Assembly (NCBI GenBank): GCA_951406725.2
Contig: OX597817.1
Span: forward strand, 16,244,001-16,308,000
Reading direction: 5' to 3'
Length of the DNA stretch: 64,000 nucleotides
Source of the DNA: Octopus vulgaris
Taxonomy: Eukaryota
Position 1 is the first letter of the stretch. Every line of letters starts with the position of its first letter. The position numbers and the translations under genes are program-made. The notes beneath the pieces are model-generated. The model saw only the letters and a program-made list of their open reading frames with translations. It was not told the DNA's origin and made no database searches. This document shows positions 5,488 to 63,981 of this stretch, in pieces.

Positions 5488-6005
5488 GATTTGGACTGCC
5501 ATATTATGGAATTCTCTTAACCTTGACAGTGTTAACATCAAGAATTATTTGAATATTTCGGCGAGTCCTATCCATCTTTTGCTAGAAACATTATTCGCTG
5601 ATGGGAGCACAATCTTCCAAGACGATAATGGGCCGATTCACATGAGGAATATTATTCAAAATGGGTACGAAAAGCACAAAAGTGAAGTAGACCTCTTGGA
5701 TTACCCTAATTCCACCCCTTATAATAGTCGGACCTCAGTATAATCAAACGTATATGGTGCATTTTGGAGCAGCAAGTAAAGGGTCGCTTCCATCCGCCAT
5801 CGCCGCAAAAAAAGGGTAAAGCATATTCTACTTGAAGTATGGCACCAAATTCCCCTACCAACTGCTTAGAACCAGTACAAGTCAATAAAGCTGTAGTTAA
5901 CCAAAGCTGAACAAATCCTGTATTAAATAATAAAACTTCCATCTAATAAGGTATTTCCATTACTATGTCTAGCCACTGTGTGTGTGTGTATATATATATA
6001 TATAT

Positions 6006-11860: not shown

Positions 11861-11864
<4 letters not shown>

Positions 11865-12301
11865 TAAGCAATAAAGGGTTTAGCAACGAATTGCCTTACC
11901 ACATACCGAATTTAGAAATAGCAGTCAAAGAGTTATAGCTATTTCTTCTACTAAAAAGGAGATCTCAGTAAAAACAGCAATTGGAAGGCAGACACAAATA
12001 GGTAAGAGAGAATTAATTGACGGCAATCTATCTTAAAATTGTATGATAGATTGCCGTCAATTAATTCTCTCTTACCTATTTGTGTCTGCCTTCCAATTGC
12101 TGTTTTTACTGAGATCTCCTTTAGTAGAAGAAATAGCTATAACTCTTTGACTGCTATTTCTAAATTCGGTATGTGGTAAGGCAATTCGTTGCTAAACCCT
12201 TTATTGCTTAGTATTACTTAAATTTTCCTCGAATGAGGCTTTTACATGCCGAAGACTACTTGGTGTAATTGATAATTATTCCAAATTAATTAATTTCACC
12301 C

Positions 12302-12304
<3 letters not shown>
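11861..12304 (+). mobile_element. TA-embedded palindromic insert (structured family S, copy 1)
   Basis: Arms 11861-12032 / 12045-12214, 12-nt loop, 90-bp unpaired tail, (TA)n on both sides. Confidence 0.85.
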
Positions 12305-17349: not shown

Positions 17350-17695
17350 TGCTGCTTTGGCGTGTGATCTACAGGGGAGATTACGTTTTTCTATTATACT
17401 GAATTAAATAATAAAATCCATAAAAAGTAACCTAAAGTAATCTCCCTTTAAAATGTAAATCACACGCCAAAGTGACGCCATTCTTTTTCTTAGGAAATTA
17501 TATGAATTTAGTTCTGGTTTCTTGTAAAAATGCAACTGCCTTCTGGTTTCTTGTAAGAATGCAACTGCCTTCGTCTCGTCACTGATCACATTGTAAAAAT
17601 CTTAAGCCAACATCTTACGGGTTTTTAGAAATCGAAAAGTCAATTAAAAAGCAATCCAAAGTAATCTCTCTTGTAGATCACACGCCAAAGCAGCA
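17350..17695. mobile_element. Unclassified MITE
   Basis: 35-bp inverted repeats tgctgctttggcgtgtgatctaca..attac / gtaat..tgtagatcacacgccaaagcagca, plus an internal third copy at ~17437-17472. Confidence 0.7.
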
Positions 17696-19295: not shown

Positions 19296-19783
19296 TATAT
19301 ATATATTGTATAAAGGTTATCAATTAAACTATGTTTTTTGGCACAGCAACTCTTTTTTATAACTACAATAACCTCGAAAACGGGGTCGAGTCGCACAATT
19401 TTAAGGTCCTTTTCGGGCAATATTTCGATTTGCTTCTAATGTTTCACTTTCGTTCGATGTTTCGCGCATGCATAGAATTGTACTCAGATAAGCATTTATG
19501 AAAATTTACACGTAAATATTGTATTAAAATAAGCCACAACCAAAAAAATTTCATTAAAAGACATCCATTTCTTTATATGTTATAAGGAAATACAGTAACT
19601 CACTCTCGCTCACATGCACACGCACACATACATACAAAAATGATGTGTGCATATGTATTTATGTACGTGTATATGAAAGATAATGTTTGAGAGAGCGAGT
19701 GAGTGCCACTTATACATACATGCAAAAAAATACATACATAACAACACACCATCACTCTCTCACATTCTCTCGCTCTCTCTCTT

Positions 19784-23955: not shown

Positions 23956-24584
23956 CAATTGTCTCAATAGATTTTGATTGTTTACCGGAGGTTTTTATAT
24001 ACATATTGATTTGTGCATATACAATGTCTTTAAAAAAACACAAACAAAATAAAAACAGTTATTTTAATAATTTTGTATTTATTTTACTTAAAAACATTAA
24101 AAAGCGTGTTGCTGGTAGCTGCGATCTTTTGGACAGTAATATTCTCGTCGCTTCAATGATTTGATTATTGATTTTCTAATATTAGATGGCGCACCCAGTT
24201 ATTTCCTTTGGATTAAAAATAAACCTTAAAAGATTCTCGGGAACAATTCATGTGTAGCGTACACTTTTTCTTTATTTACCTATAAAAGGTGTGCTATAAA
24301 AGGTGTAATGCACACCTATAAAAGGTGTACATTACAAAGGACGAACACTTACATTCTTACAAATTCGTTTTGGTTGAGATGAATTGAAAAAATCGAAAAA
24401 CTCGAATGAAATGATGAAAGGGGCCGTGCTAGCATAGCCAGTCAAGACGAAAAGAAGGGAAAAAAACAAAGGAAAATAAACCGGGGGGTTAAATGAGGAA
24501 AAACCCCGGAGCATTATTTTATTAATTCTTAATTTTTATTTGTATATATTTTTTGTTTTTTTCCCTTCTTTTCGTCTTGACCGG

Positions 24585-25270
24585 CTATGCTAGCACGGCC
24601 CCATTCATTCTCAACTTCCTTACTACAGACGTCCATCTTTTCTGGAACGTACTTTGCGACAGGTACTTTTTCTCCAGACGAATCTTTCTTGTCAGGTGGA
24701 AGTTGAAATAGCTTACCAACCGGTACTCGGGGATGAAGTGACCTGTCACAATCCCCTTTGCTCGTGTAGTCCATACTGTTTCTTTCAGTATGGCTACTAC
24801 ACAGAAAAACGATGCCTTCTTTTCCTTGTTGAAGGAAGAAGGCGGTACGATCTTAATCATGGACTCAGTCGAGAGCCATACTCTTTCCGCATCCAACATC
24901 AGTTGTTCGACATAGGCTATCAACTCATTCAACTCCTCACAGTGTACGAAGGCATGCGCGACAGTTTCACTGGCGCGCCCACACAGGACACGTGGGGGAG
25001 GTGCCAATACCGTGTCTAGACAACCTCTTTCGAACCGGCAATGCCGATCGGTAGCACAACCAGGCCAAGGATTTCTGGAAGTTATCCAGATACCTCGGCT
25101 CGAATGTACTTCTGAACAGGTTGGTCATTGGCTCCTCATCGGAGCCCAGAGTCTTCCCCAGGACATCGTCGGACTTATGCTCTACCAACCATCTATAAAA
25201 ATCCGCTGCCGGTATTGCTCGCCCTAGAGAACAGAGTGAGTGCTTGTCTGCACTCCCTCTGCCATTCCCC
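24585..25270 (-). pseudogene. L1/Tx1-clade LINE ORF2 C-terminal fragment (zf-RVT-like)
   Basis: KSLAWLCYRSALPVRKRL..TCPV / CG..ETVAHAFVHC with a frameshift. Confidence 0.85.
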
Positions 25271-25950: not shown

Positions 25951-25954
<4 letters not shown>

Positions 25955-26290
25955 AAATATTAGGGAATAAATCCAAACTTACAGGGAAAAATCAGATTTA
26001 GGATTGAATCCAATTTTATAGTAAAATATTATATTATATTAAATTAGAAATAAAACCACTATTAGGCAAATCATACAATGAAAAACTTAAGCCAATACAT
26101 AAGATTAATTCATTTATATTATTTTAAATATATATCAAAATTATTAAAAAAAGATAATTAGTATAACTTTTTTTAATAATTTTGATATATATTTAAAATA
26201 ATATAAATTAATTAATCTTATGTATTGGCTTAAGTTTTTCATTGTATGATTTGCCTAATAGTAGTTTTATCTCTAATTTAATATAATATA
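25951..26290. mobile_element. TA-embedded palindromic insert (AT-rich, not family S)
   Basis: Arms ~26031-26153 / 26167-26290, with an 80-bp unpaired tail on the left. Confidence 0.8.
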
Positions 26291-42240: not shown

Positions 42241-42518
42241 GTCATGGGCAATGCGACGATCACACGCTACACACGTTCCTTCCAAGAACTGCTGTAAACA
42301 GCGGAAGTGAGCTAGAACGTTAAAACTTAGTGCGCATGCACAGAAGAGTTTAAGATCAATCTTTGTCAAGCGGCTTCAATCTGCGTGCTTTGGCTTCGTT
42401 TCTATATTAAAGTTAGATAAGGCCGGTTTACGGGATTACCTTAGATTTCACGTTCATAGCTTTATTGCGTATCATCAGATCCCAAAACCTATTGGCTTAA
42501 GGCCTCTCTAGCGAGTGG

Positions 42519-44103: not shown

Positions 44104-44369
44104 TTGGAGTATTGCTCTCTTTACTCTTTTACTCTTTTACTTATTTCAGTCATTTGACTGCGGCTATGCTGGAGCACCGCCTTTAGTCGAGGAAATCTAC
44201 CCCAGGACTTATTCTTTGGAAACCTAGTACTTATTCTAACGGTCTCTTTTGCCGAACCGCTAAGTTACGGGAGCGTAAACACACCACCATCGGTTGTCAA
44301 GCGATGTTCAGGGGACAAATACAGACACACAAACATATACACACACATACATATATATATATATATTAT

Positions 44370-44685
44370 TTATAATAAAGGGTTAAATGCAACAAGTTGC
44401 TCAAAACCACATACCGAAAATATTAGAAATAGCAGCCAAAATTGGTTACTATTTCCTCTACTAGTAAAAAGTCTCCACAAACAAACAGAATTTGTAAGCT
44501 GTATATGGCAAAAAAGGCTGCTATTTCTAATATTTTCGGTATGTGGTTTTGAGCAACTTGTTGCATTTAACCCTTTATTATAATTATTATAACCCTTACC
44601 AAATATGGTCTTTTCCATACCGACAAATCTACTAGGTGAAATTGATTAATTTTATTAAATTAATTATATTCCACCCTTTATTGAA

Positions 44686-44688
<3 letters not shown>
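44370..44688 (+). mobile_element. TA-embedded palindromic insert (family S, copy 2)
   Basis: Arms 44370-44437 / 44516-44583; homologous to 11861-12304. Confidence 0.85.
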
Positions 44689-44740
<52 letters not shown>

Positions 44741-44745
<5 letters not shown>

Positions 44746-44829
44746 ATCCAGGTTTCTCGGAGCACTGGGCCACTTGGTGTTGAATAGATATACTATTAAA
44801 TTAGTATCTAATTCTCTCACCCTTATTAA

Positions 44830-44835
<6 letters not shown>
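44741..44835 (+). mobile_element. Family S 3'-end fragment (copy 3)
   Basis: ccacttggtg-[AT-rich hairpin]-caccctt between (TA)n tracts. Confidence 0.6.
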
Positions 44836-44910
<75 letters not shown>

Positions 44911-45945: not shown

Positions 45946-46083
45946 ACTTGAGGTTGCAGGTCCAAATCGGACTTCAAAGTTCTTTCAAAAGTTTCAAAAG
46001 TTTATATATATATATATATATATATACATACATACATACATATATATATATACATACATATATATATATATATATATACATAA

Positions 46084-46211: not shown

Positions 46212-46212
<1 letters not shown>

Positions 46213-47403
46213 TAGCCTTGAAGCCGCCCTTCGGACGACATTCAGGCTAGTCTCTGCAGTGGGCATCTTTGAGGCCTTCGGCCCCACTATCGGGTCGCTT
46301 CGCGGCCCTCTACCCTTGTGTAATGTAATGGACTCGGATACATTCATTGTATATGTATCTCCTGGTATCAATTATCCCATTCCAAACTTCCTACCCGTCA
46401 TATATCCACATACCCATATCCATACACTCAATACCTATACTTCACTCGCACCTATGCCTAAACCCCATGTCTCATTAATTTGTTGTTCAACATGTAACGT
46501 GAATTCCATCTCTGTAACAGAAAGATTAGTTCTCCCCTTAGACATAAGTTTCATAAACTACAAAATATAAATATCCATACTACTACACTTGAAACGTATC
46601 TGTTATAACACTTTATCTCGATTTGAATGTACGTGAAGGTATTTAGAATGCAGTGGAGGCGCAATGGCCCAGTGGTTAGGGCAGCGGACTCGCGGTCGTA
46701 GGATCGCGGTTTCGACTCCCAGACCGGGCATTGTGAGTGTTTATTGAGCGAAAACACCTAAAGCTCCACGAGGCTCCGACAGGGGATGGTGGTGATCCCT
46801 ACTGTACTCTTTCACCACAACTTTCTCTCACTCTTACTTCCTGTTTCTGTTGTACCTGTATTTCAAAGGGCAGGCCTTGTCACTCTCTGTGTCACGCTGA
46901 ATATCCCCGAGAACTATGTTATGGGTACACGTGTCTGTGGAGTGCTCAGCCACTTACACGTTAATTTCACGAGCAGGCTGTTCCGTTGATCGGATCAACC
47001 GGAACCCTCGTCGTAGTAACCGACGGAGTGCTTCCATCCATTTCGAATGCCCAAACTTATTTCTGCAAATGTACTAAGCTCTGATGCTGATCATAGTTTA
47101 ATCAATAAGCGTAGGATTAAAAATAGGGGAGTTAATGGGACCCTATTTAAGCGGCCCTTCAGAAATTGAACCTCCTTACGATACTCCTTGGGAGTTCATG
47201 GTATGAAATTCATTGTCGTTGCTCCGATTTTGATCGCTAATGCCATGTATTTAGTTTAAAATACAGTAAAAATAGAGACATTCCCTGTGGGACATTCTCT
47301 GAGATTAGAAGAGTTGCTGGTTTGAGTTCCGTTGTCGTTAGGAGGAGTTAACGAACATAAAAACGTAACGGACAGAGAAATATCACTCAAATTTATAATA
47401 GGA
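46212..47403 (-). mobile_element. Non-autonomous Helitron (family H3) containing a SINE
   Basis: Minus strand: TCctattataaat start; 3' hairpin gtcgtccgaagggcggc followed by CTAG|T. Confidence 0.65.
46653..47039 (+). mobile_element. SINE family B
   Basis: TSD-like atttagaatgc / atttcgaatgc. Confidence 0.93.
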
Positions 47404-47798
47404 CTAGCAGTATCGCCCGGCGTTGCTCGGGTTTGTAAGGGAAATAACTATATAAGCATTTTTAGAGATGTAAAGTATAATAGCCATCTCAATATGGCTA
47501 ACCACAAAGGGGGGTGTTACTGTAGCTTTTTACGTTCTGAGATTTAATAATAAATTTTTAGAGAGTTACTTCCCTTATATATGCCAAAAATGCATTAAAA
47601 ATGGGAAAAATTTATGGTAATTTTTTTTTTAAATCGTAGACTCATCGTAGACGCGCGCTAATACCCAGAAGGGCTCGATATGAATCACGACTATAAGATA
47701 CCCGGTTTTGGTTAAACTGCACTGCAAAATGTGGGAGTAGTTAGGAATCTAAATCGTTGGAGACAGACAGCACACAACCTCTCTTTTATATATAAAGA
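47404..47798 (-). mobile_element. Helitron H1
   Basis: a|ctag ... aaaga|t termini. Confidence 0.9.
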
Positions 47799-48155
47799 TA
47801 AAGCAAAATTTGTTTGTTTGTTTGTTTGTACGTTGATTGCTGAAAACACTAAATAAGATTAAATAATATTTCAAGGTTTTTCGCATCATTTCAATCAATT
47901 TGACCATTCCGCGGATAAGTGTGCACTTATTTTCCGAAAACGGAACAGAAGGGGAGACTGAGTTGGTGGTGCATTGCCTCCTATTTCTAACAATCTACGC
48001 ACTGCCTAATTTCATCGTAATGCTTTTTACACAGCGAAAAAATACTCTGCCTATCACTCAATCCACATCCAACTTTCACTTAGTTTATACATTACATTTA
48101 TCCTTTTGAAGTCACCGCCAGGGCAGTACTTTCTTTCTATATATATATATGTCCT

Positions 48156-48222
<67 letters not shown>

Positions 48223-49345
48223 CAATGTATGTATATATACATATATATACATATATATATATCACTACTACTTTTTTTCTCAAAACAAGAAAACATAATA
48301 GAGAAAGACAAAGAAAAGAGGTTACGGAGAAAAACACGAGACGCCGGACCTCTACTTTTTCTCTGTCTATATGTTCCTCTCTATCACTCTATTTCTCTCC
48401 CTCTCTTTCTCTCTCTCCCTCTCTCTCTTTCTCTCTCTCTCCCTCTCTCTCTTTCTTTCTCTCTGTGGTTGTATATGTGTCTCTCTCTCTCTGTCACTAT
48501 TTATCCCTCTTTTACTCTCAAGAGAAAAATACGTGAGACTGGATTAGGGAGAGAATGGATTAGGGAGAGAAGCAAGTGAGACAGTGGGGATGGAGGTAGC
48601 CACATCTATAAATCTATCGATAAAGTGTTCGACGAGGACGATGCTGTCCATTATCCTGTTGAATTCCTCAACAGTCTCGAACCGTCCGGTATGCCACCAC
48701 ACCACTTTGAATTGAGGAAGGGCGCAGTCATCATGCTTCTCAGAAACCCGGATCAGCCAAGATTGTGCAAATGGTTCACGGACTGTGTTGTGACTGAACG
48801 ACTGCCTCACATTATCGAAGCAAAAGTCTTCACGAGTGTGGTAAAGGAGACATCGTATTTACACCTTGAATACCGTTAACACCAACAGATGTCCCCTTTC
48901 GTTTCAAACGATTGCAGTTCCCAGTGAGAGTCAGTTACGCATTGACCATTAACTAGTCTCAAGGTCAAACACTGGGGGTTGTCAATCTCCATCTAGAAGA
49001 GGGCTGTTCCTCACATGGTCAATTGTATGTAGGTTGTTTCAGTGTAGCAAGCCTACAGAAACTCTTCACATATGCTCCAAAGAAAAAAGTTTAAAGCATT
49101 GTATAGACTGAAGTTCTGTAAATGTTTTATAATTTTCGTACAATACATTTATCTATTTTTATCTATATTACTTTCTTTATTTAGATATTCTAAATGAATT
49201 TGTAAAATTATGTTATGCAATATTTAAATACTTTTTAACAACTTTTATTGTAAGGAAAACGGACATTACGATAGTTACCAATATGTGCCTTATGAATACA
49301 TTTCAACACCATACAGACCGGGCCGAAGGCCTGGAGGGTCGCTAG
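47799..49345 (+). mobile_element. Deleted Helitron retaining the helicase C-terminus
   Basis: Ends gggccgaaggcct..gCTAG|T at 49345; helicase remnant inside; 5' boundary inferred. Confidence 0.75.
48625..49120 (+). pseudogene. Helitron RepHel PIF1-like helicase C-terminal pseudogene
   Basis: [26 protein letters not shown]; FKRLQFPVRVSYALTIN*SQGQTL; HGQLYVG. Confidence 0.92.
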
Positions 49346-49351
49346 TATGTA

Positions 49352-49513: not shown

Positions 49514-49547
<34 letters not shown>

Positions 49548-49581
49548 ATCAAAATAAGTAAAAGGATTTCAAGTAGTAGTT

Positions 49582-49659
49582 CAGTATGACCTTTCAAGCG
49601 ACTCCATTTAATTGAACGATGCAATCATTACATCAAATACAGCGCTATCTTCAGCTGCA
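49582..49659 (-). ncRNA. Type I hammerhead, diverged third copy
   Basis: cag-CTGAAGA-t-agcg...cgct-t-GAAA-ggtca-TA-ctg, within a 49547-49808 insert in a TA tract. Confidence 0.5.
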
Positions 49660-49806
49660 TAAATAAGGATTTTCAATAGACAAGACATATTAATATAATT
49701 TTTCTTAAATATTTTAACAGAGCAAGAGGATGGAAGAATTTCATGTTGTAACTATTGTAGCAAGAAATTCTTGCAGCAATAGTGACAACATTGAATTCTT
49801 GCTACA

Positions 49807-49852
<46 letters not shown>

Positions 49853-50474
49853 TTTGAAACTTTTGAAACAACTAATAGACGCATATCAACCCTTTACAGC
49901 TCTAATTTACCAAAGCGAGGTGTCTAATCACTGAAAGTGCACAACGACTAGACGAGTAGTCGGTGTTACGACTTAACGCTTACGTAGATTAGAGAAAAAA
50001 ACCCGCGAAGAATGGGTTTCAGATACATTGCATAAAGAAAATATAGAATATCAACCACAATTCGGTGACTGTTCACTTCAATAGCCGCTACCGAACAAGA
50101 GTGACACAATATATTGCAGTTAATGATAACGTGAGTGGTTGGTGTATAAATCTATTAAAAGCGAATGTATTAAAAAAGAAGAAAAAAAGGGAGTCAATTT
50201 ATCACGGGGAAATATATAACTGTATTACTTAAAGTAGTGAAAATACATTCTAGGTACTTTACTGGAATAATAAATTGGATGGTGGCTTTCAAGGAGATAA
50301 GTTTTCAGCGGCTTTACAATGGAGATAGACAAAATTATGCAGTACAATTTTAGTTTTTCTAAGAAAGATATTTAATCACTGATAGGGCACAATGCACAAT
50401 TACTCAATTAATAATCGCCACTATGATTTAATAAGTGTCTGTGTGTCTGTGGGTGGGTATATATATATATATAT

Positions 50475-50749
<275 letters not shown>

Positions 50750-50868
50750 TAATTAAGATTCATTTGAATCAGGTACTTAAGTTGAAGCACCAAGTCAGTC
50801 CAGTATTATCCACACAGTTCGAAATAAGGTGAATAAAATCAAAATAAGTAACACGATTTCAAGTAGTA

Positions 50869-50956
50869 ATGCAGTACGACCGTTTCAAGCGACTCCATTT
50901 AATTGAACAGCACAATCATTACGTCAATTCAAATACAATGCTATCTTCAGCTGCAC
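50869..50956 (-). ncRNA. Type I hammerhead ribozyme (left arm of palindrome)
   Basis: gtgcag-CTGAAGA-tagc...gctt-GAAA-cggtcg-TA-ctgcat. Confidence 0.7.
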
Positions 50957-51304
50957 AAATATGGATTTTCAACAGATAAGATATATTAATATGATTTTTT
51001 AAAAACTTTCAACAGAGCGCACAATCATTACGTCAATTCAAATACAATGCTATCTTCAGCTGCACAAATATGGATTTTCAACAGATAAGATATATTAATA
51101 TGATTTTTTTTAAACTTTCAACAGAGCAAGAGGATGGAAGAATTCAATATTGTCACTTTTGTAGCAAGAATTCAATGTTGTCACTATTGCTGCAAGAATT
51201 TCTTGCTACAATAGTTACAACATGAAATTCTTCCATCCTCTTGCTCTGTTGAAAGTTTTTAAAAAATCATATTAATATATCTTATCTGTTAAAAATCCAT
51301 ATTT

Positions 51305-51392
51305 GTGCAGCTGAAGATAGCATTGTATTTGAATTTATGTAATGATTGTGTTGTTCAATTAAATGGAGTTGCTTGAAACGGCCGTACTGCAT
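51305..51392 (+). ncRNA. Type I hammerhead ribozyme (right arm of palindrome)
   Basis: gtgcag-CTGAAGA-t-agca...tgct-t-GAAA-cggccg-TA-ctgcat; predicted cut after A51386. Confidence 0.75.
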
Positions 51393-51513
51393 TACTACTT
51401 GAAATCGTGTTACTTATTTTGATTTTATTCACCTTATTTCGAACTGTGTGGATAATACTGTACTGACTTGGTGCTTCAACTTAAGTACCTGATTCAAATG
51501 AATCTTAATTACT

Positions 51514-51594
<81 letters not shown>

Positions 51595-51763
51595 GTGTGA
51601 ACATAATCAAAAAGGGTAATAACATAGGTTATTATTACCAGTGGCCTAGCACAAAAGACGAATTAGTCATTAGACAAAATATTATTCATATAGAAATATA
51701 ATAAAGGCTCCCAAATAAGGAAGCTTAGTGTGTCTCTAGCACTAAGCTTCCTTATTTGGGAGC

Positions 51764-51821
<58 letters not shown>

Positions 51822-52431
51822 CACCCACAGACACACATACACTTATCAAATCATAGTGGCGATTATTAATTGAGTAATTGTTGCATTGTGCCCTATCAGT
51901 GATTAAATATCTTTCTTAGAAAAACTAAAATTGTACTGCATAATTTTGTCTATCTCCATTGTAAAGCCGCTGAAAACTTATCTCCTTGAAAGCCACCATC
52001 CAATTTATTATTCCAGTAAAGTACCTAGAATGTATTTTCACTACTTTAAGTAATACAGTTATATATTTCCCCGTGATAAATTGACTCCCTTTTTTTCTTC
52101 TTTTTTATACATCCGCTTTTAATAGATTTACACACCAACCACTCACGTTATCATTAACTGCAATATATTGTGTCACTCTTGTTCAGTAGCGGCGATTGAA
52201 GTGAACAGTCATTGAGTCGTGTGGATGTCACGCGAGCTATTTTGTGGTTGATATTCTATATTTTCTTTATGCAATGTATCTGAAACCCATTCTTCGCGGG
52301 TTTTTTTCTCTAATCTACGTAAGCGTTAAGTCGTAACACCGACTACTCGTCTAGTCGTTGTGCACTTTCAGTGATTAGACACTTCGATTTGGTAAATTAG
52401 ATTTGTAAGGGGTTGATATGCGTCTATTAGT

Positions 52432-63775: not shown

Positions 63776-63981
63776 ATATTGTTGTATTTCAGGACGGTCC
63801 TTTTTTTTTTTGCCAAATAAACACGCGCACTATATATTCGTTCTTCACTCGTTTATTACTGTTCTTATTCACGAGTAAAAATAACAACTATAATAAACGA
63901 GTGAAAAACGAAAATATAGAGCTTGTGTTTCTCTGTCAAAAAAAATTAAAAGAAAATAACCATCCCGAAATACAACAATAT
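63776..63981. mobile_element. Foldback MITE-like inverted repeat
   Basis: atattgttgtatttcaggacggt / accatcccgaaatacaacaatat and ttcactcgtttatta / taataaacgagtgaa. Confidence 0.7.

Follow-up and report, generated by a model that had tools for sequence, protein, structure and literature searches.

Short palindromic inserts with a one-sided tail lie within (TA)n tracts of the 64,000-nucleotide stretch of Octopus vulgaris DNA analysed here (the window). Our preferred reading, with a probability of about 0.6, is that these inserts are 5'-truncated 3' ends of (TA)n-targeting Penelope-like elements (PLEs), on whose RNA RT would have started at two sites about 90-100 nt apart. The feature is real and is accounted for by the known PLE mechanism. 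The inverted copy with a one-sided tail was already known, as were, in the portion of PMC11167929 used here, two RT start sites bounding the tail. What is new is the tail of about 90 nt, the duplication of the start motif and the presence of two length classes in Hydra-clade elements.

Anatomy of the inserts

The window is repeat-rich (32-44% GC, 108 rows of tandem repeats). A local inverted-repeat scan returned 28 rows, and those touching TA tracts corresponded to copies 1, 2 and 4, assigned to a family S by an earlier sequence-only reading, to a duplicate of copy 4, to the centre of a 2.6-kb palindrome and to positions 25952-26285, hereafter copy 5.

Copy 2 is inserted in the internal microsatellite of a SINE copy. 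From left to right, the locus comprises the left part of the target, (TA)8 (44351-44366); an inverted piece of about 150 nt on the minus strand, beginning at the AT-rich linker (44367-44515); a 5'-truncated direct arm on the plus strand (44516-44583), which closes with a predicted hairpin followed by ACCCTTTATT (44570-44579); a tail on the plus strand (44584-44688), with a predicted terminal hairpin closed by GGTG/CACC and a second ACCCTTTATT (44673-44682); a (TA)27 separator (44689-44742); a tail-only insert of 92 nt on the plus strand (44743-44834), whose end is CACCCTTATT; and (TA)35 (44835-44904), beyond which the SINE host continues. The arms pair perfectly over 68/68 positions (44370-44437 with 44516-44583). 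The spacer between them (44438-44515) is made of 78 nt of upstream family sequence in inverted orientation, missing from the direct piece: against the body of copy 1 it gave a z of 6.4 in antisense (0/1000 shuffles) and of 1.4 in sense. The tail measures 105 nt, or 97 nt if the arm is taken to 44591 with mismatched bases. A third ACCCTT is found just within the tail (44592-44600), with no terminus there. All 8 of the other SINE copies compared lack the insert, 7 of them exhibiting a plain tract and 1 an unrelated low-complexity stretch.

The sequence-only reading had described a further tail-only copy in the next TA tract, starting at the linker. The 92-nt insert is there, but a start at the linker is indicated by its length alone: it aligns to the S tails in its distal 55-60 nt only (z of 7.7 and 5.1), and its 5' third is not alignable to the other tails. 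It could be a short truncation, or else a complete insert whose palindrome was lost between TA microhomologies, palindromes being unstable in DNA. Because palindrome loss between TA overlaps leaves the same product, the tail-only insert is not independent support for RNA processing.

Copy 1 is preceded by (CA)16(TA)28 and consists of an inverted arm on the minus strand (11864-12032), a quasi-palindromic spacer of 12 nt (12033-12044), a direct arm on the plus strand (12045-12214) carrying ACCCTTTATT at 12196, and a 90-nt tail on the plus strand (12215-12304) with CACCCTTC at its end, followed by (TA)33. Its arms (11864-12032 and 12045-12211, 169 and 167 nt) show no substitution and one 2-nt indel; when a 3-nt TA overlap is counted the arm reaches 12214, giving 172. 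Copies 1 and 2 are homologous (z of 21.7 in a shuffle alignment test). They diverge at about a fifth to a quarter of positions, whereas arms within inserts are 97-100% identical, and this combination of high arm identity and divergent copies points to several lineages that were probably active recently. For O. vulgaris, 31 Penelope-like families with recent activity are counted in the part of PMC13282606 drawn on here.

In copies 1, 2 and 4, the inverted arm starts 0-9 nt past CCTTT(T)ATT. The two arms share their last base 9, 4 and 4 nt beyond ATT, respectively, and 3, 0 and 5 of the arm-start bases are possibly derived from the TA tract. The homologous arm starts of copies 1 and 2 agree within about 5 nt (P of about 0.04 if uniform over 250 nt), these two starts in one window being the only test of a fixed start, to which copy 4 contributes by analogy. 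The proposal of one and the same internal start therefore holds for copies 1 and 2, the 'point' being a window of several nt. The unpaired tails of about 90-105 bp claimed for copies 1, 2 and 4 were recovered (90, 105 or 97, and 96 nt), and the inner ends do vary among inserts. Arm lengths given as 172, 68 and about 36 bp stand as 172 with the TA overlap, 68/68 and 31-36; what they leave out is that the inverted piece of copy 2 extends over about 150 nt.

Copy 4 (50480-50651, plus strand) is formed by an inverted arm (50480-50510), a 9-nt spacer (50511-50519), a direct arm (50520-50555) and a 96-nt tail (50556-50651); the arms, of 31-36 nt, contain one mismatch, and the tail adjoins (CA)28, not (TA)n. 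Its layout and motifs resemble those of S despite a sequence similarity to copies 1 and 2 that is not significant (z of -0.1 and -0.3, with 521 and 621 of 1000 shuffles as high). The duplicate of copy 4 (51600-51767, minus strand; 166 matches, 2 mismatches) lies within the 2.6-kb palindrome (49871-52431). Both arms of this palindrome carry copy 4 and about 600 nt of other sequence (575 matches and 11 mismatches in the outer part), with 22 additional nt before (TA)19 on one side and a second insert family, T, arranged head-to-head in the centre. The whole may have arisen by a PLE 3' transduction of which two copies were made.

Copy 5 (25952-26285, minus strand) is unrelated to S in sequence. 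It is composed of an inverted arm (26285-26167), a 13-nt spacer, a direct arm (26153-26030) and a tail of 78-83 nt extending to 25952; its arms are about 120 nt long and TA tracts flank it on both sides. Copies 1, 2, 4 and 5 each have a tail on one end only. Across the inserts, the tails are non-coding and 78-105 nt long; the span of 83-101 nt observed for five tails has a P of about 0.0003 if lengths are uniform on 0-250, for tails partly chosen by likeness.

The sense copy of family T (51180-51513, plus strand) carries a predicted type-I minimal hammerhead (51306-51391, cut after 51386), an AT-rich linker to 51424 and an 89-nt tail to 51513, with a TA run beyond. The predicted cut is located 38 nt before the linker and 127 nt before the end. 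Two T copies end at the equivalent of 51513. A solo copy located between TA-rich tracts (49543-49809, minus strand) ends 89 nt earlier, at the linker equivalent to 51424, with a TA overlap of 1 nt and neither tail nor palindrome; being 11% diverged, it may represent a shorter subfamily. The tails of S and T are not significantly alike (z at most 0.9), and T therefore serves as an analogy only. A ACTTGGTG common to both tails was likewise discarded as not significant. A 109-nt tandem duplication (50910-51127), restricted to the left arm of T, repeats the first half of the hammerhead.

Several other elements were noted in the window. A second hammerhead-bearing family (2105-2412) forms an older palindrome within a SINE, with 84% identical arms, a core at 2319 and about 40 additional nt on the inverted side; a related solo hammerhead is found at 42478 (42428-42490, minus strand). 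A mini-palindrome in a TA tract (1676-1713) has arms of about 14 nt, an 8-nt loop and no long tail. An identical 25-nt end, TTTCAAAAGTTTCAAAAGTT, is found beside a TA tract at 45978-46002 and 49849-49873 with unrelated interiors, and is possibly the terminus of another family. Older palindromes at 24414-24608, 63776-63981 and 17355-17472, with 69-75% arm identity and no TA tracts, are possibly MITEs or decayed PLE inserts. Finally, a Helitron-like stretch (46212-49346), with CTAGT at each boundary and a nested SINE, comprises a Pif1 helicase 2B domain fragment (48580-48876, E of 1.6e-09).

Terminal motif and predicted RNA folds

ACCCTTTATT occurs five times in the window, each time in S (four at linkers, one at the tail end of copy 2), and all nine occurrences of the looser [AG]CC[CT]TTT?ATT fall in S or copy 4; the motif having been derived from these same copies, its counts describe and do not test. 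Similarly, [AG]CC[CT]TT was located at 30 nt or less from 9 of the 59 non-simple TA flanks, as compared with 3.0% of random windows. Seven of these nine flanks are ends of S or copy 4 and two correspond to one unrelated site. Tails end 1-12 nt beyond CCCTT. The CCTTTATT motif is absent from copy 5 and from family T. An S-type end at 19307-19330 (minus strand), with ACCTTT 5 nt from a TA tract, was rejected as it has no similarity to S, and readings of TAACCC as a telomere repeat and of the sequence as a SECIS element were dropped on inspection by eye.

In the predicted folds of copies 1, 2 and 4, a hairpin closed by GGU/ACC or similar precedes CUU(U) at both termini, and a hairpin is also predicted before CUU(U) where the tail-only insert ends. 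The linker of copies 1 and 2 is placed in a predicted single-stranded loop with an 8-bp helix around it. According to these models, the linker and the tail end would share one CCCTT signal following a hairpin. Support from folding was weak, with z ranging from -1.2 to -3.5 and the better-folding strand not being the same across copies. Two-sided covariation between copies 1 and 2 was found at 0 of 16 pairs, and RNAalifold gave a different, weak consensus for three terminal hairpins, because their sequences align poorly.

Two proposed start sites and the competing explanations

Under the preferred reading, a GIY-YIG endonuclease would cut both strands of the (TA)n tract, and the two RT start sites would each directly follow a CCUU(U) motif preceded by a predicted hairpin. 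One 3'-OH would prime at the distal site, yielding the direct copy with its tail, while the other would prime at the internal site, yielding the inverted copy without a tail. Because a single RNA with a broken 5' end would serve as template twice, both cDNAs would usually stop near one point, and copies 1, 4 and 5 would thereby keep spacers of 9-13 nt; in copy 2, the cDNA primed from the tail would have halted 78 nt sooner. The cDNA ends would finally be joined and filled.

Each insert has two outer termini, both lying against a microsatellite, and SINE paralogues provide the empty site. At each outer end, an antisense copy is joined to the microsatellite by its 5' end, which is the polarity expected of 3'-OH priming. 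Priming at two sites is further favoured because RT of the anole PLE PAc starts in vitro at two internal sites, the tail being the stretch between them, and the same source describes cutting of both strands at AT-rich DNA (ATT) (PMC11167929, in part). The sequence-only reading had itself proposed two priming points, each served by one end of a broken tract: the polarity and the in vitro behaviour of PAc agree with it, and the idea is probably correct, though not new; copy 4 has an end at (CA)28. More tentatively, and in our view possible rather than probable, a duplicated RNA module (a hairpin and CCUUUAUU) would be the RT start signal of a (TA)n PLE group, a double-strand break in the TA tract providing two ends from each of which the same RNA would be copied. 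If this is true, the Hydra clade and relatives lacking a ribozyme would have in the tail of 80-100 nt a trait that has gone unrecognised, and the module would be the first sequence-defined PLE initiation signal.

The main competitor, which we consider rather unlikely, is a PLE with one start site, in which the tail-primed cDNA snaps back and copies its own strand before the endonuclease cuts it, or the TA end captures it, at the AT-rich linker. The partly symmetric spacers of copies 1, 4 and 5 (12, 9 and 13 nt) fit this equally well, and in the parts of the sources used here junction palindromes are read as self-priming (PMC3846280), the tail is ascribed to endonuclease resolution (PMC8557442), and ATT, present in the linker, is the sequence preferred by the anole enzyme (PMC11167929). 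However, the inverted spacer of copy 2 would then need a later deletion, the solo copy of T ends at the linker without any palindrome, and one motif is found at both the linker and the tail end.

Cutting of the RNA at the linker, whether by a ribozyme or by a nuclease, would leave a tail-less template and a free tail RNA. It would explain the 92-nt insert of tail length and would suit the position of the linker in copies 1 and 2, in a loop predicted to be single-stranded within an enclosing 8-bp helix. We regard it as improbable. No hammerhead core was detected on either strand of S, copy 4 or copy 5 by a scan that found those of T and at 2319, and that reached over 170 nt in S and only 36 nt upstream of the linker in copy 4. 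The CTGAGA..GAAA of copy 1 was not accepted as a decayed hammerhead, since its core is incomplete and copy 2 does not have it. None of the best 150 of 167 Rfam matches was a ribozyme family, a weak negative as the minimal hammerheads of the window, those at 2319 and 42478 among them, were also absent from these matches; the best ones were miRNA hairpin models below the gathering score, reflecting the palindromes only. Moreover, the T cut lies 38 nt away from the linker, ribozyme mutants of the anole PLE left insertion unchanged in the portion of PMC11167929 concerned, and the 5' third of the tail-only insert is not alignable. The suggestion that the linker is a processing site is thus weaker than that of two priming points.

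A DNA event following insertion, in which a broken TA end invades the TA-like linker and copies the insert backwards by a replication template switch, is highly improbable. Every linker is AT-rich, with TA overlaps of 0-5 nt, and the additional inverted sequence of copy 2 would be permitted, but the pattern recurs in four independent inserts and 0/8 SINE copies have an inversion beside a like tract. Longer TA runs in the same elements were also skipped: a longer alternating run elsewhere is unused in 4/5 elements, with a tie in copy 4. As the overlaps at five junctions are 3, 0, 5, 5 and 1 nt, the TA microhomology suggested earlier does not by itself pick out the linker and is at most a helper.

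A MITE, a Helitron derivative, an L1-type twin-priming product or an assembly artefact would share the palindromic shape and the TA flanks and is scarcely credible. Inverted repeats do not occupy both extreme ends (78-105 nt are unpaired at one), and the one-sided tail and variable centre rule out a MITE. In L1 twin priming, the inverted piece continues the direct piece, which it duplicates here. The arms are mutated, copy 4 exists in two diverged copies and the flanks are unduplicated.

Relation to known Penelope-like elements

The S inserts are likely truncated Penelope-like retrotransposons, and S may be a Naiad-like or non-autonomous family. Copies 1, 2, 4 and 5 contain the head-to-head inverted 5'-truncated copy expected of PLEs and a one-sided tail, which exceeds the 30-40 bp that are typical without being strictly defining. 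Insertion in (TA)n, a trait of Hydra, Naiad and Neptune, was found throughout, except at the (CA)n tail end of copy 4. The minimal type-I hammerhead that Hydra, Neptune and Poseidon elements carry close to their 3' end was not found in the 170 nt of S. An inverted 5'-truncated copy, a tail at one end and a (TA)n bias are described for the Naiad, Neptune and Hydra clades in the part of PMC8557442 used here, PLE insertion anatomy being treated also in PMC3846280 and PMC8969392, so that the inverted partial copy with a tail, put forward as a PLE habit from the sequence, is standard PLE anatomy (PMC8557442, PMC3846280). EN+ PLEs are defined by an ORF that encodes a telomerase-like RT with a GIY-YIG endonuclease, and Naiad by an N-terminal GIY-YIG together with CxC and DKA motifs. 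The assignment falls short of proof, since S is not linked to any coding sequence for RT or GIY-YIG: none of the 10 window ORFs scanned matched, and even the longest insert copy has no more than 262 nt, all of it non-coding 3' end. A direct tandem of S of the pLTR type was not seen in the window, where the copies are short. A profile search of the window recovered no further S copy, the best other match (5913-5984, E of 0.019) being unconvincing. The conserved S motif gave 0 matches in bacterial and archaeal genomes, and the S motifs, searched as exact short words that line ends could interrupt, gave none at the 3' ends of the published Naiad, Chlamys and Hydra consensus files. Neither PLE tails of about 90 nt nor these families were found in the literature text; Repbase, Dfam and figures, outside this scope, may record them.

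The sources differ on the origin of PLE inverted repeats and one-sided tails, invoking endonuclease resolution, self-priming or two RT starts. The core phenomenon being described already, the gain is a sharper test case: with a tail of about 90 nt and the same motif at each end, the sites are far enough apart to be mutated singly, and thousands of genomic copies could separate dual priming from snap-back. Such inserts also seed palindromes in microsatellites, and curators should be aware that two lengths exist for the consensus 3' ends of these families.

We compared the inserts with known systems from the portions of the cited papers used here. The Penelope elements of Adineta vaga and Drosophila virilis have head-to-head inverted pLTRs, palindromic junctions and one tail (PMC3846280), but their tail is a coding one of 31 bp, with target duplications of 8-10 bp and no microsatellite target. 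The Poseidon element PAc of Anolis carolinensis resembles the present inserts, on the preferred reading, by its two RT start sites bounding an optional tail, by its AT-rich target cut on both strands and by a hammerhead cut located away from the termini, as in family T. It differs in that its tail is 30-40 nt long, so that the 78-105 nt found here exceed published tails two- to threefold. In PAc, RT starts within the ORF, in an AC-rich stem-loop, whereas here both sites would lie in non-coding sequence, where a predicted hairpin is followed by CCUU(U); and its target is AT-rich DNA in place of (TA)n tracts.

The Naiads Naiad_Obim, Naiad_Ovul and Naiad_Omin share (TA)n targeting and the inverted 5' copy, with the tail on either end and no canonical hammerhead (PMC8557442). 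Naiad_Obim and Naiad_Ovul end in CCT/ATTTGAT beside TA, to which copy 4 is alike by eye, whereas a by-eye comparison found the last 600-700 nt of Naiad unlike S. Cephalopod Naiads are described as long inactive (PMC8557442), in contrast with the 97-100% identical arms of S.

Finally, the Hydra clade, which includes Hydra-1_Obim of Octopus bimaculoides, targets (TA)n as here and contains one family with an inverted 5' copy (PMC8557442). Its hammerhead, of the CTGAAGA..TGAAAC type, is like that of family T, while S has none in 170 nt and gave no sequence match to the clade with exact short words. PMC8557442 gives a tail of 30-40 bp and, in the portions used here, makes no mention of two distance classes. 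We calculated the cut-to-end distance for 25 Hydra-clade entries from Files S1/S2 of that paper: 10 were at 29-47 nt, 11 at 87-152 nt, 2 in between, and 2 were outliers (354 and 2622), dropped before the medians were taken. The class medians were 39.5 and 115 nt, about 75 nt apart, and the family T distances of 38 and 127 nt fall in both classes. These figures, which compare different families and not the two ends of a single one, suggest that curators recorded Hydra-clade elements sometimes to the short terminus and sometimes to the long one, and that a long tail is characteristic of the clade.
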